Positions 224 to 18,668 are shown, counted from the first letter of the stretch. The stretch: DNA of 47,989 nucleotides from Candidatus Giovannonibacteria bacterium RIFCSPHIGHO2_12_FULL_44_22 (GCA_001778695.1 MFHU01000017.1:21214-69202), one strand, 5' to 3'. Notes: generated from the sequence alone by a model not told the origin. Made by a program: numbers and translations.

Positions 224-1123
224 ATGGCAAATAGGCACCTCGCGAGATCTGTGGCAATGCAATCTCTTTTCCAGTGGGACTTCAATGGAAGAAAGGACGA
301 GGAGATTGAAAAAGTTTTAGAGGCGAATTTAAAAGAATTCGCGCCTGGTTTGGACGACCGCCAATTTGTCAAAGAGCTAGTGGAGGGCGTTCTTAAGAAT
401 CGAGATAGGATAGACTCGATTATTGAGAAGGCTGCTCCGGAATGGCCCTTGGAACAGGTTGCAATGGTGGACCGCAATGTTTTAAGGATCGGGCTTTACG
501 AACTCCTGTTCGGTTCCCGAAAAGAAGTTCCGCCTAAAGTCGCCATTAACGAAGCAATTGAACTCGCTAAAACCTTTGGCTCGGAATCTTCCGGGCGTTT
601 TGTTAACGGAGTCTTGGGGACGGTGTATCGCGAAATCGGCGAGCCGGGACGGGATGAGACTTCCAAGAAAAAAGCGACGCTCGAAGATTTGGAAAACCTT
701 CCGGTAGAGGCGAAGGCCGGCGGGATAGTTTACCGCAAGGAAGGAAAAAATTTGCAGTTTGCCCTCGTGCACGATGTTTTCGGATACTGGACGCTATCTA
801 AAGGAAGCCCATTGGAAAACGAAGAAGCGACGGGCGCGGCGGAGCGGAAGGTTAAAGAAGAATTAGGGATTAAAAGCGCGAAAGTCATTGAAAAATTAGG
901 GCAGAACGAATATATCGCGAAGGACCCGGAAAAAGGGCAGGTCCGGCGCAAGGTGGATTATTTCCTGCTCGAGACCGAAGACCGGGATTTAAATTTGGAA
1001 CCCTCCGGCGGCCTCGACGACGCCAAGTGGTTTAAGGTGGACGAGTTGAAAGACATCAAGACTTATCCGGATATCAAGCCTCTTTTTTCGAAAGCCCTCG
1101 AAATCATAAACAAGCAATCATGA
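224..1123 (+). CDS. nusB: Transcription antitermination factor NusB fused to a C-terminal Nudix-like domain
   Basis: N-terminal R..AMQSLFQWD, DRNVLRIG, VAINEAIELAK.FG, FVNGVL motifs; C-terminal WTLSKG...ERKVKEELGI is Nudix-box-like. Confidence 0.9.
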   Translation: MANRHLARSVAMQSLFQWDFNGRKDEEIEKVLEANLKEFAPGLDDRQFVKELVEGVLKNRDRIDSIIEKAAPEWPLEQVAMVDRNVLRIGLYELLFGSRKEVPPKVAINEAIELAKTFGSESSGRFVNGVLGTVYREIGEPGRDETSKKKATLEDLENLPVEAKAGGIVYRKEGKNLQFALVHDVFGYWTLSKGSPLENEEATGAAERKVKEELGIKSAKVIEKLGQNEYIAKDPEKGQVRRKVDYFLLETEDRDLNLEPSGGLDDAKWFKVDELKDIKTYPDIKPLFSKALEIINKQS

Positions 1124-1812
1124 GCGAACTCGCTTTGTTAGAAGAAAAACTAAATATAAAATTCCAGAATAAAAAACTTTTAGAAGAGGCTTTTACGCAC
1201 CGCTCGTATTTAAACGAAAACCCGGACTGGGCGGGAAACCATAACGAGCGCTTGGAATTTTTAGGAGACGCGGTCTTGGAGTTGGCGGTGACGGAACATC
1301 TTTATTCAAATTTTCCGGATAAAACGGAAGGGGATTTGACGAGCTATCGCGCGGCTTTGGTTAACTCCAACATGCTCGCGGAGTTGGCGCAGGAAATCGG
1401 CTTAAACGATTATTTAATGCTTTCCCGCGGCGAAGCCAAGGATTTGGGGCGCGCCCGGCAATATATTTTGGCAAATACTTTCGAAGCCTTGGTCGGCGCG
1501 ATTCATCTGGACCAGGGTTATCTCGCGGCGGAAAAATTTATCAAAGAAACCGTACTCACTAAAGTAAGCGATGTCATCGCAAAAAAGCTTTTCCGTGACC
1601 CAAAAAGCGTTTTTCAGGAACGGGCGCAGGAAGCCGTCGGGATCACGCCGACATACGAAGTCATGAAAGAATGGGGCCCGGACCACAATAAACATTTCAT
1701 CGTCGGCGTGTATTTGGGCAAGGAGCTTATCGCGGAGGGCGAAGGGCCGTCCAAACAGGAAGCCCAGCTCCGCGCGGCGGAAGAAGGCTTGCGTGTAAAA
1801 AATTGGGCGTAA
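1120..1812 (+). CDS. rnc: Ribonuclease III
   Basis: NERLEFLGDAVL signature plus C-terminal dsRBD (DPKS.FQE...GEGPSKQEAQ). Confidence 0.97.
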   Translation: MSELALLEEKLNIKFQNKKLLEEAFTHRSYLNENPDWAGNHNERLEFLGDAVLELAVTEHLYSNFPDKTEGDLTSYRAALVNSNMLAELAQEIGLNDYLMLSRGEAKDLGRARQYILANTFEALVGAIHLDQGYLAAEKFIKETVLTKVSDVIAKKLFRDPKSVFQERAQEAVGITPTYEVMKEWGPDHNKHFIVGVYLGKELIAEGEGPSKQEAQLRAAEEGLRVKNWA

Positions 1813-5804: not shown

Positions 5805-6053
5805 TCACGATGGCTTACTTTCTCCGTGAAGTTTTCTCTGGAGGTCCTCGAATGCATCCAAAATTCTTTTTGGGGGATTGTCAGACTCTCCAAGGACAAC
5901 AACCTTGCCACTCCAAATGTCAGTCGCCAAAATTATTTCCAGATCCTCTAACAGCATCAAGGTCTGCGGACTGTTTTTGATATCCATCTTAGTGCAATAT
6001 CCTACCGTGCCTTTTCTGCTACCTTCCATCCAAAGAATTTTTATAATTTTCAC
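5805..6053 (-). CDS. Hypothetical protein, 82 aa
   Basis: ORF with GTG start after GGGG, directly downstream of the 6063-6218 ORF; no recognised motif. Confidence 0.5.
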   Translation of the reverse strand: MKIIKILWMEGSRKGTVGYCTKMDIKNSPQTLMLLEDLEIILATDIWSGKVVVLGESDNPPKRILDAFEDLQRKLHGESKPS

Positions 6054-6062
6054 ATACGCCCC

Positions 6063-6218
6063 CTAGGTTAATTCCGCTTGGATCTTGTGTTTTTTTCTTC
6101 CACCCTGAAGGGCGAGAAGTAAAACAACAACAGCACCAGCAGCAAGGACAATGATAGCTAAGGGTAGAATCCAACCAGTCAGCAGCCAAAGAATAATATT
6201 TTTTATTTTTTTAAGCAT
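6063..6218 (-). CDS. Small single-pass membrane peptide, 51 aa (not in ORF track)
   Basis: GGAGGAGG SD then MLKKIKNIILWLLTGWILPLAIIVLAAGAVVVLLLALQGGRKKHKIQAELT*. Confidence 0.65.
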   Translation of the reverse strand: MLKKIKNIILWLLTGWILPLAIIVLAAGAVVVLLLALQGGRKKHKIQAELT

Positions 6219-6286
6219 ATAGCCTCCTCCATTGTGAAGTAAAAGGACGCTTTTATCTAAGGTGATTTTGCATTATAATAACCACA

Positions 6287-7045
6287 ATGTCAAAGATTCG
6301 GTTCAATGTCATCACAATATTTCCCAAAATTTTCGACTCTTACTTTGGCGAGTCGATTATTAAGCGCGCTATCAAAAAGAAAAAAGCGGAGATTAAAGTC
6401 CATAACCTGCGGGATTTTTCGAACGATAAAAAACACCAAAAAGCCCGCCCGACCAAACCAGCCCAAAAGATTCATTCTGGCGGGTGGTCATTCGGGCGGG
6501 TTGACGATAAGCCGTACGGCGGGGGCGCGGGGATGGTTTTGATGGCCGGACCAATTTTGCGCGCGGTTAAATCACTTGGACGCTCGGCGTCCAAGTCAAA
6601 GCAGAAGGTTGTTATATTCTCCGCGAAAGGGAAGCCGTTTAACCAGAAAATGGCACATGATTGGTCTAAAAAATATAACAATTTTATTTTCGTGACCGGT
6701 AGATACGAAGGGATAGACGAACGCGTTGCAAAAATTTTGAAGGCTGAAGAAATTTCTATCGGGCCGTATATAACGACCGATGGTGATGTCGCGGCCATGG
6801 TTGTCGTCTCCGCGTTGACCCGCTTAATTCCGGATGTAATAAATTGGTCTTCGCTCGAAGACGAATCTTTTTTGCGTCAAGAATTAAAAAAGGAAGCGAA
6901 GCTCAAGGAAAAACAGCTCGAGTACCCGCATTACACCCGGCCGGAAATTTTAAGCTGGGGCGGCAAGAAATATAAAGTGCCGAGTGTCCTGTTATCGGGA
7001 GATCACGCAAAAATTAATTCCTGGCGCGACAGGCAGAGAAAATAG
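6287..7045 (+). CDS. trmD: tRNA (guanine-N1)-methyltransferase TrmD
   Basis: VDDKPYGGGAGMVL, GRYEGIDERV, LEYPHYTRP, VPSVLLSGDHA. Confidence 0.97.
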   Translation: MSKIRFNVITIFPKIFDSYFGESIIKRAIKKKKAEIKVHNLRDFSNDKKHQKARPTKPAQKIHSGGWSFGRVDDKPYGGGAGMVLMAGPILRAVKSLGRSASKSKQKVVIFSAKGKPFNQKMAHDWSKKYNNFIFVTGRYEGIDERVAKILKAEEISIGPYITTDGDVAAMVVVSALTRLIPDVINWSSLEDESFLRQELKKEAKLKEKQLEYPHYTRPEILSWGGKKYKVPSVLLSGDHAKINSWRDRQRK

Positions 7046-7089
7046 TCGAGCGGCCGCCTTGGGCGACCGCTCTTTATGTCTTGTGGCTG

Positions 7090-7197
7090 TCAAAATTTGA
7101 TTAAGATGATCATCCCGGCGAATGCTAGGAGAAATACGGCGTAGACCAGTAAGGCCAATGGAAAGGTATCTGGGGCCGGCTCTTCATCTTTTGACAT
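7090..7197 (-). CDS. Small single-pass membrane peptide, 35 aa
   Basis: SD TAAGGAGGTG before ATG; MSKDEEPAPDTFPLALLVYAVFLLAFAGMIILIKF*; hairpin at 7048-7072 downstream. Confidence 0.6.
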   Translation of the reverse strand: MSKDEEPAPDTFPLALLVYAVFLLAFAGMIILIKF

Positions 7198-7241
7198 AAA
7201 CCACCTCCTTATTGGCTTTATTTTAAGGCCTATTTTGTCTA

Positions 7242-7269
7242 TTGACAATGAATAAATGGCGGCTAGAAT
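7242..7269 (+). promoter_or_regulatory. Putative sigma70 promoter of the 16S rRNA gene
   Basis: TTGACA-N16-TAGAAT about 220 nt upstream of the 16S gene. Confidence 0.65.
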
Positions 7270-7370
7270 GGAGTGATGCTTGTGCCACCCAGTATGGTGG
7301 CACTTTAGAATCGGAAAGAAACTTAACAATTTACGAAGAATCACACAAATACCACTCCATACTTATTAAC

Positions 7371-7462
7371 TTAATTATGGTCTGGTACAAGTAAAATATA
7401 AAAAGTCCAAACGGACAGAAGCACCATTCCATTTTTATCAATTAATTATGGTCTGGTATAAG
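7371..7462 (+). repeat. 21-nt direct repeat in the 16S leader
   Basis: TTAATTATGGTCTGGTACAAG (7371-7391) and TTAATTATGGTCTGGTATAAG (7442-7462). Confidence 0.8.
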
Positions 7463-7498
7463 AAAATAAATTTTCTCTTTTGTCCCGTTCATTCATAA

Positions 7499-7538
<40 letters not shown>

Positions 7539-8456
7539 GATAAGGCATGCAAGTCAAACGGAACTTATTTTGAAGGAGTTGCGATTACATCAAGACAACG
7601 GATTCATAGGTTTAGTGGCAGACGGGGTAGTAACACGTAGGAACATCCCCCAGAGACGGGTATAACTAGCCGAAAGGTTAGCTAATCCCCGATAGTCTCG
7701 TAAGAGTAAATCACTTAGATTGGCTCTGGGAATGGCCTGCGGGATATCAGCTTGTTGGCGAGGTAATTGCTCACCAAGGCTATGACGTCTAGGGGGCGTG
7801 AGAGCGCGACCCCCACCAATGGAACTGAGACACGGTCCATACACCTACGGGTGGCTGCAGTCAAGAACATTTGTCAATGGGCGAAAGCCTGAACAAGCGA
7901 CGCCGCGTGCGGGATGAAGCTCTTCGGAGTGTAAACCGCTTTTATAGGGGAGGAACTAAAGTGACGTTACCCTATGAATAAGGCCTTGCTAACCTCGTGC
8001 CAGCAGCCGCGGTAATACGAGGAGGCCAAGCGTTATCCGGATTTATTGGGCGTAAAGGGTGTGTAGGGGGCATGGTTAGTCTCCGCTTAAATTTTCGGGC
8101 TCAACCCGGAATCCGGCGGAGAAACGGCCAAGCTAAGAGGGTGCCAGAGGCAAATGGAACTCATGGTGTAGGGGTGAAATCCGTTGATATCATGGGGAAC
8201 ACCAAAGGCGAAGGCAATTTGCTGGGGCATTCCTGACCCTGAAACACGAAAGCGTGGGGATCAAAAAGGATCGAAAAGTTCCGTTTACAAGGCGGACTGG
8301 TCCAATTGTGAAGTAATTCGCAATATAAAAACTTGGCTATATCGGGGAACATCTCGCGAAGCGAGACAATCCCGAGGGAAGTTGTGTGTTCAAATTTCTG
8401 GAAAAAGAAAAAGGCGCAGCTGTGCCGAGCCTTGGGAAATCACTGATCGATCTAAG

Positions 8457-8609
8457 TCATCGCTTGGTAGTAGACTCAAGCTTAGCGCATGCCAGAGCTG
8501 TTAGAAAACAGCCTAGTAGCAGCATCGCAAGAGTTGCGAGGGGTCCATACGCGAGGACGGGCTTACTTAGAGCGGTCAAAAGTGTTATTAGAACTCCAAT
8601 TATAACCAT
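8457..8609 (-). CDS. 50-aa hydrophobic peptide encoded antisense in the intron P6 extension (not in ORF track)
   Basis: TTGACA-N17-TATTCT promoter (8655-8627), SD GGAGGT, MVIIGVLITLLTALSKPVLAYGPLATLAMLLLGCFLTALACAKLESTTKR*, then hairpin and U-tract. Confidence 0.75.
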   Translation of the reverse strand: MVIIGVLITLLTALSKPVLAYGPLATLAMLLLGCFLTALACAKLESTTKR

Positions 8610-8854
8610 GGTTCACCTCCGATGCAAGAATACCATGATGGGATTAGAATGTCAAGAAAATTGACTCCAGAAATTTGAACATACAACCCCGTAGAGACTA
8701 TACGCCGAGCTCCTGATTAATTTCAGGATGATGATATAGTCCGAACTCTGCAGCGATGCAGAGAAGCAGATAGAAATATTCTGCTCACTCAAGAATGAAA
8801 ATCGGTGCTAATTTTTGGAAAAAGAAAGGCCACCACTATTAAGTGATGGCGTTC

Positions 8855-8934
8855 GCAAGACGAGAGATCAGATTCGAACTGACATCTAGCAGGGGGTACC
8901 CCGTCGCCTTACCGTTAGACCACTCCCGACTTGC
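8855..8934 (-). ncRNA. tRNA-like RNA encoded antisense in the intron P9 extension
   Basis: 12-bp acceptor-like stem with one mismatch, D-arm GTCT-AACGGTA-AGGC, T-arm GTCAG-TTCGAAT-CTGAT, non-canonical anticodon arm; own promoter and terminator. Confidence 0.75.
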
Positions 8935-9655
8935 ATAAAAAGATTAGCACTAAATACAGTCTATTGTCAATAGACTCCAAAAATTAGCACCGATTACAGA
9001 ATTTCTTGAGGTCCGCCGTCGCTAAAGCTATGGCGGACACAGTAACAAAATGTAGATACCCTTGTAGTCCACGCCCTAAACGTTGATGACTAGGCATCCG
9101 AAGTATCGACCCTTCGGGAGCCGCAAGCTAACGCGTTAAGTCATCCGCCTGGGAAGTACGATCGCAAGATTAAAACTCAAAGGAATAGACGGGGACTCGC
9201 ACAAGCGGTGGAGCATGTGGTTCAATTCGATGGTAAACGAAAAACCTTACCAGGGCTTGAAATGGTTTTGACATTCCAGCGAAAGCTGGACTTCTCACAA
9301 GGACAAAATCACAGGTGCTGCATGGCTGTCGTCAGTTCGTGGCTTGAGTTGTTCCCTTAAGTGGGGTAACGAACGCAACCCCTATCGTGTGTTACAAGTG
9401 TCACGCGAGACTGCCCCGCTCAGCGGGGAGGAAGGCGGGGATGACGCCAAGTCAGCATGGCCCTCTGATGCCCTGGGCTACACACGTGCTACAATGCCGG
9501 TTACAATGGGTCGCGATGCCGTAAGGCGAAGCAAATCCCATCAAAAGCCGGCCCAGTTCAGATTGAGGTCTGCAATTCGACCTCATGAAGTCGGAATCGC
9601 TAGTAATCGCAGGTCAGCTATACTGCGGTGAATACGTTCTCGAGTCTTGTACTCA

Positions 9656-10514
9656 AAATTAAAAGCGCCCGGCAGCTTATATTTCTAGGCCGTTAAAATC
9701 GGTCCCTCCGATTAAAATCGGAGCGTAGCAAACGGATAAGTCCTTGGCCGCGAGGTTGTGGACTGAAGGATCCTATTAGCAAAAAGCAGCCTTATTAGTC
9801 CCCGGCTTGAGTCGGGGAAAGGCCGCGCGACCCATTCGGTGAGTAATGGGGAAGCGCCAAGAAAAGCTTAATGAGGATGTTTGGAAAAGAAATACAAGTG
9901 ACCCGCGGGAGATCTCATAACGCCACTGGAATTATTGCGTTTTGAGAAGTCAGCTGAATCATAGTACTGTGCGTCAACTTATTTTTATGTTAAAATAGGC
10001 GCATGGGAAGGATGAAACCGACGGTTGCAAAAGAATATATTGTTGGGCTTACTGATGGAGAAGGATGTTTCTATGTAAACATATGGAAATCTTCTTTATA
10101 TCGAGCAGGGTTCGGTGTTCAAATGCATTTTCATATAAAGATGCAGGAGAAAGACAGGATGTTGCTCGAAAAAGTGCGAAATACATTAAAGTGCGGCGCA
10201 GTTTATTTTCAAAAAGAACAGCGCCGAAACCACGTTCAATGTTATCGCTATACCGTCAGTGCGCAGCGGGATATCTTCAATACGATAATTCCATTCTTTC
10301 AGCAAAATTCTTTGGAGAGCGCAACAAAGCGCAAAAGTTTTAAGATCTTTTGCCGAATTGCTAATTTGCTTCAAGCAAAAGCGCATTTAACCAAAAGAGG
10401 TTTAAAACGAATATGGAAGCTAAAAAAGCTTATGAATCAAAGAACCGTCGGGCTCGCGTAGTGCGGGAAATCCGCCCGCTACGTGGGAACGCGAAGCATT
10501 CTAACTATCGCAAT
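9656..10514 (+). mobile_element. Group II-like intron near 16S position 1398 (859 nt) carrying a LAGLIDADG ORF
   Basis: Domain V-like CGCGTAGTGCGG-GAAA-TCCGC-CC-GCTACGTG; 3' terminal AT; loop GGTGAGTA (9838-9845) complementary to the ligated exon junction TACTCA|CC. Confidence 0.8.
10003..10461 (+). CDS. Single-motif LAGLIDADG homing endonuclease
   Basis: EYIVGLTDGEGCFYV motif; later IIPFF..N.L...KRKSF.IF and HLT..GL..I..LK..MN are typical of the family. Confidence 0.93.
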   Translation: MGRMKPTVAKEYIVGLTDGEGCFYVNIWKSSLYRAGFGVQMHFHIKMQEKDRMLLEKVRNTLKCGAVYFQKEQRRNHVQCYRYTVSAQRDIFNTIIPFFQQNSLESATKRKSFKIFCRIANLLQAKAHLTKRGLKRIWKLKKLMNQRTVGLA

Positions 10515-10759
10515 CCGCCCGTCAACTCAAGGGAGCCGGGAGTAGATGAAGCCAGCGATTTTCGCTGATTAGTCTAAGCTCGGTGACAGGGAGTAAGTCG
10601 TAACAAGGCACGGCTAGCGGAAGCTGGTCGTGGAGTTTAATTTTTAATTTTTGTGATAAACAAAAGTTAATGTGTCGATTATGCCGTTTCGGCATAGGGT
10701 ATTGGTCCCGCAACCCTAATGCGGGACTGGGACAAAAGAAAAAGTGCTTTAACAAAATC

Positions 10760-10791
10760 AAAAAATCCGAATTTACAAATTCGGATTTTTT
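10760..10791. terminator. Terminator after the 16S gene
   Basis: AAAAAATCCGAATTT-AC-AAATTCGGATTTTTT perfect hairpin. Confidence 0.75.
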
Positions 10792-10831
10792 GTGTTATTA
10801 TTTGGATAGATAATATGCAAAAGGAGAGCTT

Positions 10832-11056
10832 ATGCCACATAGAAAATGGTCGGAAAGCGTTCTTTTAAAGTTAAAGCAAGCAAAAATGGAAACAGGCGCG
10901 CTCCCTGGAGCAAGCACTAGGGTGCCATTAAGCGGATATGAAATCGCGCAACTTATTGAGGTTCTCGAACCTTCTGAAATATTGCCGCTATTCCGGTGGC
11001 ATAATCATGATGAAATTTATTTACCAAATAGCAGAGAATCGACCGTCAAGAAATAG
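10832..11056 (+). CDS. Hypothetical protein, 74 aa
   Basis: SD AAGGAG before ATG; followed by terminator-like CGCC..CCGCA/TGCGG.GGCG and a T-run. Confidence 0.5.
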   Translation: MPHRKWSESVLLKLKQAKMETGALPGASTRVPLSGYEIAQLIEVLEPSEILPLFRWHNHDEIYLPNSRESTVKK

Positions 11057-11116
11057 CGCCTGTCCGCAAACCTGCGGAGGCGTTTTTTATTTTATTCACA
11101 TCAAGCGAAGTCGAAT

Positions 11117-11188
11117 TGCGTGTGGGAGGGATCGAACCTCCGGCCTCTGTCTTATCAGGACAGCGTTCTACCACTGAACTACACACGC
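11117..11188 (-). tRNA. tRNA-Ile(GAT)
   Basis: Cloverleaf with anticodon arm CTGTC-CTGATAA-GACAG; CCA not encoded. Confidence 0.93.
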
Positions 11189-11318
11189 GAAATTTACTAA
11201 TTTTAAGCCTAGCAATTTTTTAGACGTTTGTGAATAACTGATTAGTATTTAAAGCTAAATTATGTTAGAATACGCCTAAAGGTCAAAATATATTATTATA
11301 TAAGCGTTTTTTAATACT

Positions 11319-11501
11319 ATGCTAGCAAACAACAAACCAGAGCCAGTTGTGGCCTATTGCGTAAAGTGCCGCGAAAAAAGAGAGATGACCAACCCTCGAG
11401 AGGTTTCTATGAAAGGAAAAGGAGGTGTGGAGCGCCGCGCGATGACAGGCACTTGCGGGAAATGCGGAACAAAGATGTTTAGAATCATGGGCAAGAAATA
11501 A
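11319..11501 (+). CDS. Small zinc-ribbon protein (DUF5679-like)
   Basis: AYCVKCREKREM...GTCGKCGTKMFRI, two CxxC pairs. Confidence 0.75.
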   Translation: MLANNKPEPVVAYCVKCREKREMTNPREVSMKGKGGVERRAMTGTCGKCGTKMFRIMGKK

Positions 11502-11511
11502 ATCGTGCCCG

Positions 11512-11582
11512 GGGCCCGTAGCTTAGTGGTAGAGCATCCGGTTTGCATCCGGAAAATAGGGGTTCGATTCCCCTCGGGTCCA
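11512..11582 (+). tRNA. tRNA-Ala(TGC)
   Basis: TCCGG-TTTGCAT-CCGGA anticodon arm and G3:U70 identity pair. Confidence 0.93.
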
Positions 11583-11600
11583 AAATATTAATAAACCTTA

Positions 11601-11828
11601 CTAATCCTCCAGAATCTTTATTACCAATTTCTTGGCTGGTTTGGGCATACCTAGTTTTTTAAGCAATGATTCAATTTGTTCCAAAGTATAGATACGATAA
11701 TTATTTATAGGGTGTCTTGCGGCTTGGAATTTTCTATGATTATCCCAATTTCTAAGCGTAAGAGGAGTCACACCTATCAATCTGGCTGCTTGATGTATAT
11801 TTAGATATTTCTTTTGCATTAAATTCAT
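11601..11828 (-). CDS. MerR-family HTH protein
   Basis: LNIHQAARLIGVTPLTLRNWD...RHPINNYRIY. Confidence 0.85.
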   Translation of the reverse strand: MNLMQKKYLNIHQAARLIGVTPLTLRNWDNHRKFQAARHPINNYRIYTLEQIESLLKKLGMPKPAKKLVIKILED

Positions 11829-11885
11829 AACTATAAGTTTACTAAACATATAAGAAGTCGTCAATCTTGGCTAGGCGAGTAAGTG

Positions 11886-12812
11886 TTATCTGGGCAATGA
11901 GATTTCAAAATAATTGTTTCCATTGTCCAATAAAATCAGTTGGCCGGCTTCAGCCGAAATGATTTTAGGCGCTTTGCCTTTATAAATCGGAGAAATATTT
12001 TGTCCGCCGGTCCGCTCCATTTCTACCACGTAAATAGCGTCTCCGCTCGCGACTAGCAGATAATCTGGCCAATCAGGATAAAATTTCACATCTCGGATAG
12101 GCGAGGCCGACAAAATATGCAGTCCTCTTTCAGGATTTGTTGTTGAGTTCCTTTCCCATTCAGGTATTTTGTCTAAATCGGAAATCCAGTAGGAATCGAT
12201 ATTTTCTTCATCCCAATAAATAATTCTTGAAAAATTTTCGTCAAAAAAACTGTTTTTTTTGCTTTTTAAAATCTTAAAAGTCGTGGTGCTCCATTGGCCG
12301 ATAACGTCAAAAATATCCTTGTTTTTATAAAAGCCGCCGTCATCTCCCAAAATTAAAAAATCGTCAGTTTTCGGAATAACCCAGAATTTCTTTACGCCAG
12401 GAAATTTTGGCTTTTTTATTTCCAAGGCAGGAGTTGTGGTACCTAGAATTTTTATCTCGGCATTTTTTGGCACCAAAAGCACGGATCTATTCGCAACTAT
12501 TTCCGGCAGAATCATGAGCGTCTTTGTCCACCTCCAAAAGCCGTCTTTTTCAACGGTTGTTTGGTACGTGCCGGGGAGCAGATTTTTTATTAGAGTGGAA
12601 TTTGCCAAGAGTGATGTTTTTTTTGTTTTTTTATCAATGATCACTACGGCGCCGGCCTCGGAGGTTTTTATGAAAACGCCCCCAGTTTTATGAAGCTTGA
12701 AATCGCTGCCGATGCCATAGCCCAAACTGTAAAGAATCACCGGAAACAAAAGTAGTAAAAATATAAGTATGGCGAGATAAAACAGCACCCGCCTTTTGGT
12801 TTTGGTAAACAT
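11886..12812 (-). CDS. Membrane-anchored PEGA-like domain protein
   Basis: N-terminal TM, then TGGVFIKT...NLLPGTYQTTVEKDGFWRW. Confidence 0.65.
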   Translation of the reverse strand: MFTKTKRRVLFYLAILIFLLLLFPVILYSLGYGIGSDFKLHKTGGVFIKTSEAGAVVIIDKKTKKTSLLANSTLIKNLLPGTYQTTVEKDGFWRWTKTLMILPEIVANRSVLLVPKNAEIKILGTTTPALEIKKPKFPGVKKFWVIPKTDDFLILGDDGGFYKNKDIFDVIGQWSTTTFKILKSKKNSFFDENFSRIIYWDEENIDSYWISDLDKIPEWERNSTTNPERGLHILSASPIRDVKFYPDWPDYLLVASGDAIYVVEMERTGGQNISPIYKGKAPKIISAEAGQLILLDNGNNYFEISLPR

Positions 12813-16349: not shown

Positions 16350-17411
16350 ATGCTTTTAACTCTTTTTATTTTCCTGATTATTCTTTTGGTTCTTGTGCTT
16401 TCCCACGAAGCGGGGCATTTTTTTACGGCGCGTTTTTTTGGCGTCAAAGTTGAAGAATTCGGCTTTGGGATTCCTCCGCGGATTTGGAGCTTGTGGCGCG
16501 ACAAGCATGATACTCTTTATTCTTTAAATCTTCTGCCTTTCGGCGGATTCGTAAAAATATTTGGCGAAGAGGGCGAGGATGGCGATAGCTCTGGAAGTTT
16601 TGGGTCAAAATCCGCCTCAAAAAGAGCCGTGATACTGGCCAGCGGAGTATTAGCAAATATTATTTTGGCTTTTCTCGCCCTTACTTTGGTAAGCGGTTTG
16701 GGCGTGCCACAAGCCGTTTCCGAAGAAGAAAGCGGCAATTATCTCGACGCCAAAATAACCATTATGGATGTGGCGCCGGATTCGCCGGCGGCACGCGCCG
16801 GAATTATGCCTGGAGACCAGATTTTCGGCTTTCAAAAAATAGAAGACGTGCAGAATTTTATTAAACAAAATAAAGGCAAAAATATCTCACTTTCTCTAAT
16901 TCGGGGAAAAAAGTCGCTTGAAGTGAGCGCGCTTTCCCGCCAAAATCCGCCGGAAGGGGAGGGGCCTTTGGGGGTTGCTCTCGGGCTAGTGCGCGTGAAA
17001 AAATCTCCGTGGTATCTTGCTCCAATAGACGGTGCACGATTTACTTGGGAAATTTTAAAAGGAACAGTTTTGGGATTATGGGATCTTATCCAAAGCCTTT
17101 TTAAAAAAGAGGCCTTGCCTGTTGAAGTTGCCGGTCCAGTGGGAATTTTCAACATAACTTCTTCGGCCATCAATCTGGGTTTTGGCACGCTTCTTATATT
17201 ACTTGCGGTTTTGTCCATTAATCTTTCGTTAATTAATATTTTGCCGTTTCCGGGTTTGGACGGCGGAAGATTATTTTTTCTTTTGATTGAAACTTTGCGC
17301 GGCCGGCGGATTTCTCCAAAAACCAGCGCTCTGGCGCACAGCCTCGGCCTCGCGATTTTAATTATGCTGATGCTAGTGGTAACTTATCACGACATTGCTA
17401 GGACGTTCTGA
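16350..17411 (+). CDS. rseP: Site-2 protease RseP (M50 with PDZ)
   Basis: HEAGH, PDZ DSPAARAG..PGD, NILPFPGLDGG. Confidence 0.92.
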   Translation: MLLTLFIFLIILLVLVLSHEAGHFFTARFFGVKVEEFGFGIPPRIWSLWRDKHDTLYSLNLLPFGGFVKIFGEEGEDGDSSGSFGSKSASKRAVILASGVLANIILAFLALTLVSGLGVPQAVSEEESGNYLDAKITIMDVAPDSPAARAGIMPGDQIFGFQKIEDVQNFIKQNKGKNISLSLIRGKKSLEVSALSRQNPPEGEGPLGVALGLVRVKKSPWYLAPIDGARFTWEILKGTVLGLWDLIQSLFKKEALPVEVAGPVGIFNITSSAINLGFGTLLILLAVLSINLSLINILPFPGLDGGRLFFLLIETLRGRRISPKTSALAHSLGLAILIMLMLVVTYHDIARTF

Positions 17412-17429
17412 CTAAGCTAACATATTCCT

Positions 17430-18668
17430 ATGCGACTTTCGGAATTATTCGCAAAAACAGAGAGGCGGCCTCCTAAAAACGAAGAGTCAAAAAACGCCAA
17501 ACTTTTGGAGCAGGCAGGTTTTATTCAGAAGCTCTCCGCTGGAGTTTATACTTTTTTGCCGTTGGGCCTTCGGGTTTTAAATAAGATAGAAAATATTGTG
17601 CGGGGGGAAATGAATAAAGCCGGCGGGGTTGAAATTTTAATGCCGTCTCTGCATCCCAAAGAAAATTGGGAGATTACCGGCAGATGGCAGGCCTTTGACG
17701 CGCTTTTTAAAACCAAAAGTAATTTCGGCGGAGAATACGCACTAGGGCCCACGCACGAAGAGGTGCTTTATTCTTTACTTAAAAAACACATCAGCTCTTA
17801 TCGCGACCTTCCCGTTTATATTTATCAAATCCAAACAAAATTCAGAGATGAAAAAAGGCCCAAGGCCGGGCTTTTGCGCGCGCGGGAATTTCGTATGAAA
17901 GACCTTTACAGTTTTCACGCGAACGATGAAGACCGTGATAAATATTACGAGGTGATGAAAAAATCTTATGTAGAAATTTTTAAAAAATTGGGTTTAGCGG
18001 CCATTCCCACCACTGCTTCCGGCGGAACTTTTTCGGAGCTTTCTCTGGAATTTCAAGTTGCCTCCGATGCCGGCGAAGACACTATTTATTTTTGCAAGAA
18101 ATGTAATTTAGCAATTAATAAAGAGATTGTCGGTTTAAACTCGCCGAAATGCTCAAATTGCGCGGGGCCGACTAAAGAAATAAAAGCCATAGAAGCCGGA
18201 AATATTTTCCCGCTGAAAGAAAAATACGCCAATGATTTTAATCTGAATTTTAAAGGCGAAGCAGGAAAGGAAAAATTGGTTTCAGCCGGATGCTACGGCT
18301 TTGGAACGTCACGGGTGATGGGAATTATTGCCGAAGTTATGAGCGACGAAAAAGGGCTTATTTGGCCGAATGAGGTCGCGCCTTTCACTCTCCATTTAAT
18401 AGCTGTAGGCGAGTCGCCTAAAGTAAAAAAAGCCGGCGAAAAACTTTACGCCGATCTTATTGCAAGAGGCGGGGAAGCATTGTACGATGATCGCGCGGAA
18501 AGAACCGCCGGAGAAAAATTTGCCGAAGCCGACCTTTTGGGAATTCCATTAAGAGCTGTTGTGAGCGAGAAAACTTTGGAAAAAGACAGCGTGGAACTGA
18601 AAGAAAGAAATTCCGAAACGATTCGGCTGGAAGTTATAAAAACATTTTTAGAAAAATATGATAAATAA
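17430..18668 (+). CDS. proS: Proline--tRNA ligase, short form without editing domain
   Basis: LGPTHEE, YQIQTKFRDE.RP..GLLR.REF.MKD.YSF, GCYGFG.SR. Confidence 0.95.
   Translation: MRLSELFAKTERRPPKNEESKNAKLLEQAGFIQKLSAGVYTFLPLGLRVLNKIENIVRGEMNKAGGVEILMPSLHPKENWEITGRWQAFDALFKTKSNFGGEYALGPTHEEVLYSLLKKHISSYRDLPVYIYQIQTKFRDEKRPKAGLLRAREFRMKDLYSFHANDEDRDKYYEVMKKSYVEIFKKLGLAAIPTTASGGTFSELSLEFQVASDAGEDTIYFCKKCNLAINKEIVGLNSPKCSNCAGPTKEIKAIEAGNIFPLKEKYANDFNLNFKGEAGKEKLVSAGCYGFGTSRVMGIIAEVMSDEKGLIWPNEVAPFTLHLIAVGESPKVKKAGEKLYADLIARGGEALYDDRAERTAGEKFAEADLLGIPLRAVVSEKTLEKDSVELKERNSETIRLEVIKTFLEKYDK

Follow-up and report, generated by a model that had tools for sequence, protein, structure and literature searches.

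The 16S ribosomal RNA (rRNA) gene of Candidatus Giovannonibacteria bacterium RIFCSPHIGHO2_12_FULL_44_22 is interrupted by a group I intron, and the P6 hairpin of this intron carries, on the strand opposite to the rRNA, an open reading frame (ORF) of 50 codons with promoter-like, ribosome-binding and terminator-like signals of its own. The gene resides in a stretch of 47,989 nucleotides (nt) that is part of contig C17 (GCA_001778695.1 MFHU01000017.1:21214-69202); this whole stretch is termed the window, and positions are counted from its first letter. On balance we favour the interpretation that the ORF is a real, self-contained mini-gene, that it constitutes the cargo of an inverted-repeat-bounded cassette inserted backwards in P6, and that its output is probably inversely coupled to rRNA transcription. 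The window gene is probably real and a member of a recurring, apparently undescribed cassette family. This view is carried by the anatomy of the unit, its recurrence, coding signals that are specific to one frame and presence/absence polymorphism.

Host intron and anatomy of the P6 cassette

The genome comprises 643 kb in 17 contigs, a size typical of the Candidate Phyla Radiation (CPR)/Patescibacteria. Its bacterial 16S rRNA gene starts at 7493 on the plus strand (Rfam SSU_rRNA_bacteria, 1178 bits). The first exon (7493-8272) ends with ...AAAAAGGAT, as read from the sequence at the junction, and the gene resumes at TAGATACCC (9054) after an interruption of 781 nt (8273-9053, plus strand). The junction is GGAT / intron ...AAAATG / TAGATACCC, with the upstream exon ending in U and the intron in G, as is the rule for group I introns. 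We take the insertion site to correspond roughly to E. coli 16S position 788/789. The Rfam model Intron_gpI matches 8300-8763 over its full length (1-253) with an E-value of 1e-9 and a score of 42.9 bits, which is below the gathering score of 50; a search of 8180-9120 at the Rfam gathering threshold returned nothing. The assignment also draws on homologous introns, which occupy this 16S junction in five further genomes, as seen when the intron DNA was compared with 400 genomes of the class, and on DNA contigs containing an intron-less form of the gene, in which 8271 is joined to 9053.

In the Intron_gpI alignment the apex of the P6 hairpin carries an insertion of 275 nt. It was in this loop that a sequence-only reading of the window had placed a minus-strand gene for a membrane peptide, and the elements it described are all present. 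A promoter-like site (8627-8655, minus strand) consists of TTGACA (8655-8650), a spacer of 17 nt and TGnTATTCT (-10 element at 8632-8627), amounting to 10 of 12 matches plus the TG. The Shine-Dalgarno (SD) sequence GGAGGT (8615-8620, minus strand) lies 6 nt upstream of the ATG at 8609, from which the ORF runs for 50 codons to a stop codon at 8459-8457 (8457-8609, minus strand). The encoded peptide (MVIIGV...STTKR) has two hydrophobic segments, seen as two windows of 17 amino acids (aa) with a mean Kyte-Doolittle hydropathy of at least 1.6, and a charged tail; its grand average of hydropathicity is 1.37, and the DNA encodes a hydrophobic peptide in the ORF frame only. The predicted hairpin and T-rich tail are likewise found, as a terminator-like hairpin followed by TTTTTCTTTTT (8401-8432, minus strand). 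Its stem (8432-8412; fold -8.8 kcal/mol) contains one T.C mismatch at 8428/8416, which is why our terminator scan missed it.

What the earlier reading had overlooked is the 22-bp inverted repeat that bounds the unit, along with a paralogous cassette in P9 and the wider cassette family. The left arm (8381-8402) and the right arm (8666-8687), 95% complementary over 22 nt (inverted repeat I1), pair with each other in the intron RNA and extend P6. They are paired in the minimum free energy fold, which has a z-score of -6.05. On the rRNA-sense strand the 261-nt interior of this unit, henceforth cassette A, is no more stable than its shuffles (z -0.71). The interior is therefore not a specially stable RNA and the insert not simply a structured extension of P6.

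The -35 hexamer of cassette A is embedded in a palindrome (8649-8665, minus strand) of the form GTCAA-N5-TTGAC, and most sister cassettes feature GTCAAG-N5-7-CTTGAC at this place. Judging from its sequence, this palindrome could serve as an operator, a recombination site or an RNA hairpin, either instead of or besides being a promoter element. A sense-strand ORF of 92 aa (8386-8664) in the same insert was rejected as a candidate gene: it is devoid of an SD sequence, its start falls within the arm, Pfam yielded no match and the sister cassettes show no consistent counterpart.

A family of cassettes in discarded parts of rRNA units

The P9 region of the same intron harbors a second cassette, cassette B (8800-8995, minus strand), bounded by perfect 20-bp arms (8800-8819 and 8976-8995) that are also paired in predicted folds. 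The inner end of the right arm of cassette A resembles the arm of cassette B (direct repeats D2 and D3), and the two units have common end sequences, 23 nt at 87% and 22 nt at 82% identity. Cassette B contains a promoter-like TTGACA (8970-8965) and a -10-like TAATCT (8946-8941), and its cargo is a tRNA-like RNA (8930-8858, minus strand; Rfam tRNA model, 31.6 bits with a gathering score of 29) in place of an ORF. This RNA begins about 10 nt past TAATCT and ends at a strong terminator (8850-8829, minus strand). It has good acceptor, D and T arms and a TTCGAAT loop, while a GC stem with a tiny loop replaces the anticodon arm, and ARAGORN labels it tRNA-???.

Further cassettes were gathered by their arms and not by their ORFs, which yielded a collection of 20 after removal of duplicates. 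Besides the intron comparison with 400 genomes of the class, which fed into this collection, an exact-arm scan of the species genomes returned ten stretches, six of them with both arms, and the arm pattern occurs in nine of the 20 genomes of the window's order. Where named, the relatives in which the element occurs bear the labels Candidatus Giovannonibacteria and Zambryskibacteria. The corresponding scan of metagenomes pertains to the 80 loci listed of 119 stretches; among these matches ten possess an inverted partner, and six of the ten are real cassettes and four chance occurrences. When an exact 15-mer arm pattern was run against the 400 genomes of the class, two extra matches (G340 and G107) were discarded as chance occurrences in coding DNA; the reversed pattern, used as a control, gave three hits.

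The order of elements is remarkably constant in this collection. A GGAGG-type SD sequence with a spacer of 5-9 nt, an ATG and an ORF of 38-89 codons are present in 17 of the 20 cassettes, and these ORFs all start 17-30 nt after the -10 element. Promoter scores reach at least 9 of 12 in 18/20 cassettes. A hairpin and T-run abutting the 3' arm was found in 18/20 by script and, by eye, also in L136. On the rRNA-sense strand none of the 20 contains an ORF behind a strong SD (GGAGG), and four contain one of at least 15 aa behind a weaker SD (GGAG, GAGG or AGGAG). The three cassettes without an ORF comprise one with the tRNA-like RNA and two, L080 (66 nt) and L132 (131 nt), that are empty or minimal.

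The ORFs themselves show coding signals that are confined to their own frame. In all 17 the open stretch that follows the ATG exceeds that of most shuffles (27-254 of 2000), with a Fisher combined p of ~7e-8. Windows resembling transmembrane (TM) segments (17 residues, Kyte-Doolittle mean of at least 1.6) occur in 12 of the 17 ORF frames, compared with 2, 0, 1, 1 and 0 in the five remaining frames. The cargo is hydrophilic in five of the 17, and these five are mutually unrelated. A variant of the L136 cargo is 90% identical and of the same length; its five changes are all hydrophobic-for-hydrophobic or among small residues. Conservation is higher in the arms and the promoter palindrome than in the cargo.

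All 16 cassettes whose orientation could be determined are antisense to the rRNA. They sit in P9 and P6 of 16S introns, in 23S introns and in 16S leaders. Among the five relatives with an intron at the junction used in the window, four have P9 arms nearly identical to those of cassette B; on the strand opposite to the rRNA these arms enclose a short ORF opened by an ATG behind GGAGG and flanked by a TTGACA-type promoter and a hairpin with T-run. In G003/L003 and G013/L004, two of the five, only a short P6 hairpin is found where the window has cassette A. That group I introns of 23S genes also act as hosts was established by Rfam searches of the host loci (L072 and G308/L014); in G308/L014 the cassette occupies the P6 position, has related arms and encodes a cargo with two TM segments. 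In three genomes cassettes are located upstream of the 16S 5' end. One of these, in G018, is assigned to the 16S leader because it is preceded, on the rRNA strand, by a near-consensus promoter.

The cassette of the window is present at low depth in DNA contigs from four groundwater and soil runs, with a single variant, 8428 A>C (plus strand). Position 8428 is C in three of the four runs, the fourth having no depth there, and this base converts the T.C mismatch into a G-C pair and restores the terminator stem. The assembled window may thus carry a minority allele or an error at 8428. In many related introns of these runs P6 is a short hairpin, the P9 unit is empty or another cargo is present, from which we conclude that the cassettes are optional and exchangeable.

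Two further observations concern the surroundings of the family. Related introns at the same 16S site (L099 at about 320-520 and 560-810, plus strand; L010, L015 and L008) contain small sense-strand ORFs with strong SD sequences (AAGGAGG and ATG) in their P5/P6 regions, and mini-genes therefore occur on both strands of these introns. Within its own 643-kb genome the search for copies of the cassettes or their ends added to the two intron cassettes only matches of low complexity and a single isolated arm-like site, which lies on contig C9 (about 17380-17480; L059 about 1500-1600). This site is located outside of the rRNA genes and differs from the P9 arm by two mismatches. On its other strand TTGACA-17-TATAAT, a predicted transcript about 45 nt long and a hairpin with T-run come before the arm. 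It may represent a half-cassette or a small RNA gene with the same terminator-arm end.

Function of the cargo and competing explanations

How such a unit would work can be outlined from its arrangement. Read in the direction of the cargo, the putative order is arm, promoter, SD, small ORF, intrinsic terminator, arm. As both arms flank the minus-strand transcription unit without being part of it, it is in the sense RNA or at the DNA level that they act. In the rRNA precursor they would form a helix of 20-22 bp, so that the insert would hang from P6 or P9 and leave the ribozyme core undisturbed. The stems of intervening sequences in rRNA genes, which are cut by RNase III (PMC4990558), represent an equivalent solution. 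The antisense orientation would keep the hairpin-U-run terminator and the strong ribosome-binding site out of the rRNA precursor, and the terminator would thereby spare rRNA synthesis. The product is predicted to be a small, membrane-inserted helical peptide. Because the gene is arranged head-on in the rRNA unit and its mRNA is wholly complementary to intron RNA, its output is probably low when rRNA synthesis is high and rises when rRNA synthesis stops. Polymerase collision and duplex formation, possibly followed by cleavage through RNase III, could mediate this coupling. Transcription, translation and membrane insertion of the cargo as well as coupling to rRNA synthesis are steps that we infer.

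Taken alone, the ORF of the window is weak evidence; it is the comparison of cassettes that makes the case convincing. A number of findings speak against the interpretation that we favour. Of 5000 dinucleotide shuffles of the insert, 379 (7.6%) yield an ATG-initiated ORF of at least 50 codons on the same strand, and 68 ORFs of at least 30 aa overlap the region 6000-12000. A search of 5.8 billion proteins with the peptide recovered nothing but the peptide itself, and a search of 1.84 billion representatives added one spurious repeat protein of 536 aa. Pfam (best match LapA_dom, E 0.38), PADLOC and the ESM Atlas provided no lead for it. Codon usage of the ORF amounts to -0.007 bits per codon, below 97% of real gene pieces of this genome, and the shadow frame on the opposite strand scores about the same (0.052), which places the ORF between coding and non-coding. 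RNA runs were searched for intron sequence and none was found to contain it. The sole population variant (8428) falls outside of the ORF, and the predicted 5' untranslated region (UTR) has a length of only about 10 nt. The conserved -35 palindrome could have been kept for an RNA or DNA-binding reason instead of as a promoter. Two of the 17 ORFs (G203 = L038 2188-2415 and G005b = L054 322-588) have no stop codon before the terminator and their frame enters the 3' arm; judging from the sequences, they would give non-stop mRNAs unless transcription continues past this point. Lastly, the cassettes are related via their arms, so the counts given above are not fully independent.

Sequence comparisons of the cargo are equally sparse. 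When the DNA of the P6 insert was compared with 60 relatives, the only match was in its own genome, and none of the 17 cargo peptides gave a match above thresholds in Pfam or PADLOC. In an all-vs-all blastp of the cargos the sole similarity of the window peptide is a weak one to the L136 cargo (39% over 33 aa, E 0.002 in a tiny database), which sits in an intron whose flanks match those of the window. Otherwise this comparison returned a match between G005b and G203; all of these matches are weak and composition-prone. A kinship between the cargos of L032 and L072, suspected by eye, was not borne out by blastp.

The most serious alternative is a strict type I toxin-antitoxin system, as had been suggested by the sequence-only reading. 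The peptide would damage the membrane, the rRNA precursor or the excised intron RNA would serve as cis-antisense antitoxin and RNase III would cut the duplex. Cessation of rRNA synthesis through starvation, phage shut-off or intron loss would then lead to production of the peptide and to dormancy, abortive infection or post-segregational killing, and an intron without an endonuclease would be stabilized. A 50-aa hydrophobic peptide with a charged tail, encoded antisense to the rRNA, and small TM peptides among 12 of the 17 sister cargos are in line with this proposal; the earlier suggestion of an antisense gene for such a peptide stands. In agreement with the same reading, the ORF lies wholly within the 16S unit on the opposite strand, so that the rRNA transcription unit covers the entire mRNA and a complementary RNA is to be expected whenever the rRNA is made, and RNase III is indeed encoded in the window (domain match at about 1168-1563, plus strand, 139.9 bits). 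A second RNase III domain gene is found on another contig (C2:11958-12368, 128.2 bits). Among the P6 ORFs (two examined with Pfam) and the ORF list the intron has no endonuclease ORF of its own, and one sister cargo gave a sub-threshold holin-like match (Phage_holin_3_6, 19.8 bits versus a cut-off of 28.4). On the other hand, neither Pfam nor PADLOC produced a match to described type I toxin families, and the five hydrophilic, mutually unrelated cargos, the tRNA-like RNA and the two empty cassettes among 20 weaken the case for a strict toxin-antitoxin system. Moreover, the cassettes are often absent or replaced in related introns. A dedicated antitoxin promoter is lacking, the sole plus-strand promoter-like site in 7400-9800 being located at 9479. 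Type I toxin mRNAs typically have a folded leader; here, the 5' UTR of about 10 nt offers none. Taking both sides together, we regard a strict type I system as a plausible function, though one of rather low probability, and treat the peptide as accessory or selfish cargo of the cassette family and not as a proven toxin.

The same tentative standing is given to a broader proposition. A CPR cassette family confined to the discarded parts of rRNA units might use the rRNA precursor as a growth-rate-coupled antisense silencer for mostly pore-forming, type-I-toxin-like cargo that would be made only upon collapse of rRNA transcription by starvation, phage shut-off or intron loss. A role in dormancy, abortive infection or addiction might then also explain the persistence of introns that lack an endonuclease.

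Less probable still is that the cassette is a real DNA element of which the working product is RNA, for example an antisense regulator of intron or rRNA processing, or which has no product at all and is a decaying selfish insertion with an unused ORF. Cassette B with its tRNA-like RNA only, L080 and L132 without any ORF, the two ORFs that run through the terminator, the orphan nature and ambiguous codon usage of the window peptide and the better conservation of arms and promoter palindrome compared with cargo would all be accommodated by this explanation. It does not account for an SD at fixed spacing and an ATG in 17 of 17 cargo-bearing cassettes, nor for open frames exceeding chance, frame-specific hydrophobicity and the exclusively conservative changes in the 90% identical L136 variant.

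A chance assembly of ORF and signals in a structured P6 extension is already disfavoured and appears very improbable to us. As detailed above, ORFs as long as this one abound in the rRNA region and in shuffles, and promoter-like sites are not enriched (three found in 7400-9800 versus 2.5 expected from shuffles). The combination of GGAGG and, 4-10 nt downstream, an ATG that opens at least 30 codons, however, appeared in only five of 5000 shuffles, the same ordered architecture recurs in 17 of 20 cassettes that were defined by their arms, and the sense-strand interior folds no better than shuffled sequence.

Group I introns often carry homing-endonuclease genes in P6 or P9 loops. Least plausible of all is nevertheless a degenerate remnant of such a gene: a LAGLIDADG ORF does reside in the second intron of the same 16S gene, but neither 8457-8609 (minus strand) nor 8386-8664 (plus strand) matches a Pfam family of the LAGLIDADG, GIY-YIG, HNH or His-Cys box type, the insert comprises only about 260 nt, and it forms a compact unit with its own promoter, SD and terminator, a design common to sister cassettes with unrelated cargo.

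Relation to known elements

The second interruption of the 16S gene is found at 9647-10514 (plus strand). The gene breaks after ...CTTGTACTCA and the exon resumes at CCGCCCGTCAA (10515). The insert contains the LAGLIDADG_1 ORF (10003-10461, E 4.5e-21) and a weak match to group II D1-D4 (9914-10013). Since this insert interrupts the gene from 9647 on, the 16S end reported by Rfam at 9687 is an artefact of forced alignment. An insertion type at position 1400 is known for CPR 16S genes from a survey of insertions in the rRNA genes of this group (Tsurumaki et al., 2024; PMC11270868), and the second insert of the window fits this type.

So far, CPR rRNA introns have been described as carrying homing endonucleases or nothing. 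Our observations suggest that complete mini-genes, facing backwards and with exchangeable cargo, are present in some introns regarded as ORF-less and in some rRNA leaders, which would constitute a new place to seek small proteins in minimal genomes and a natural design in which the output of a gene could be wired inversely to ribosome synthesis. Should the peptides prove to be toxins, this would be the first type I-like module with an rRNA precursor as antitoxin and a route for selfish introns to become addictive. On the practical side, such inserts are a complication for 16S-based surveys, and annotation pipelines overlook them or report them without their context.

In the full-text literature that we searched, we found no description of antisense promoter-ORF-terminator cassettes or type I modules in bacterial rRNA introns; the supplements of PMC11270868, which were outside the scope of this search, might list unannotated ORFs. 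That survey restricted its ORF annotation to those with Pfam domains and counted 49 group I introns of 16S genes among the ORF-less ones, and the words "antisense" and "promoter" are absent from its main text. The intron-borne ORFs it describes share with ours the host group, the type of intron and the location in peripheral loops, and the LAGLIDADG ORF in the second intron of the window conforms to them.

Well-known type I toxin-antitoxin systems include hok/sok, tisB/istR, fst/RNAII and ldr/rdl. The window gene resembles them as a gene for a short hydrophobic peptide that is overlapped by complementary RNA from the opposite strand, such that silencing by duplex formation and RNase III is plausible. 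It differs from them because the "antitoxin" would be an rRNA precursor or intron without a dedicated, promoter-driven small RNA, because complementarity spans the whole mRNA, which has a very short 5' UTR, and because sister cassettes have hydrophilic or RNA cargo and no known toxin family is represented.

Intervening sequences (IVS) of rRNA genes are a second point of reference. The IVS in the 23S rRNA gene of Coxiella burnetii carries an S23p ORF, RNase III acts on the stems of known IVS, and the Coxiella IVS protein is apparently not made, as stated in the respective report (PMC4990558). IVS share with our cassettes that they are optional inserts of rRNA genes with inverted repeats forming a long stem in the precursor, contain a small ORF and are regarded as selfish. 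Terminal inverted repeats of this type are present here (22 bp at 95% and 20 bp at 100%) and are paired in the folds. Known IVS ORFs are sense-oriented, have neither a promoter of their own nor a good SD and belong to the S23p/23S_rRNA_IVP family. The cassettes, in contrast, are antisense, have their own promoter, a strong SD and a terminator and transport varied cargo. Furthermore, they are nested in intron loops (P6 and P9 in the window) or leaders and not in a helix of the mature rRNA, the place from which RNase III excises IVS with no subsequent ligation. Pfam searches with the ORFs of either strand of the P6 insert gave no match to S23p/23S_rRNA_IVP.

Finally, the cassettes are reminiscent of miniature inverted-repeat transposable elements (MITEs) and integron gene cassettes, as they are short units bounded by inverted repeats, polymorphic in presence or absence and variable in the cargo between conserved ends. 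Although inverted repeats are present, the multiple copies per genome that are characteristic of MITEs and insertion sequences are not: the cassettes are single-copy here, no target-site duplication was seen and no integrase or transposase is linked to them. Unlike MITEs and integron cassettes, each of these units brings along a promoter and a terminator, and all of them reside in the discarded parts of rRNA units.

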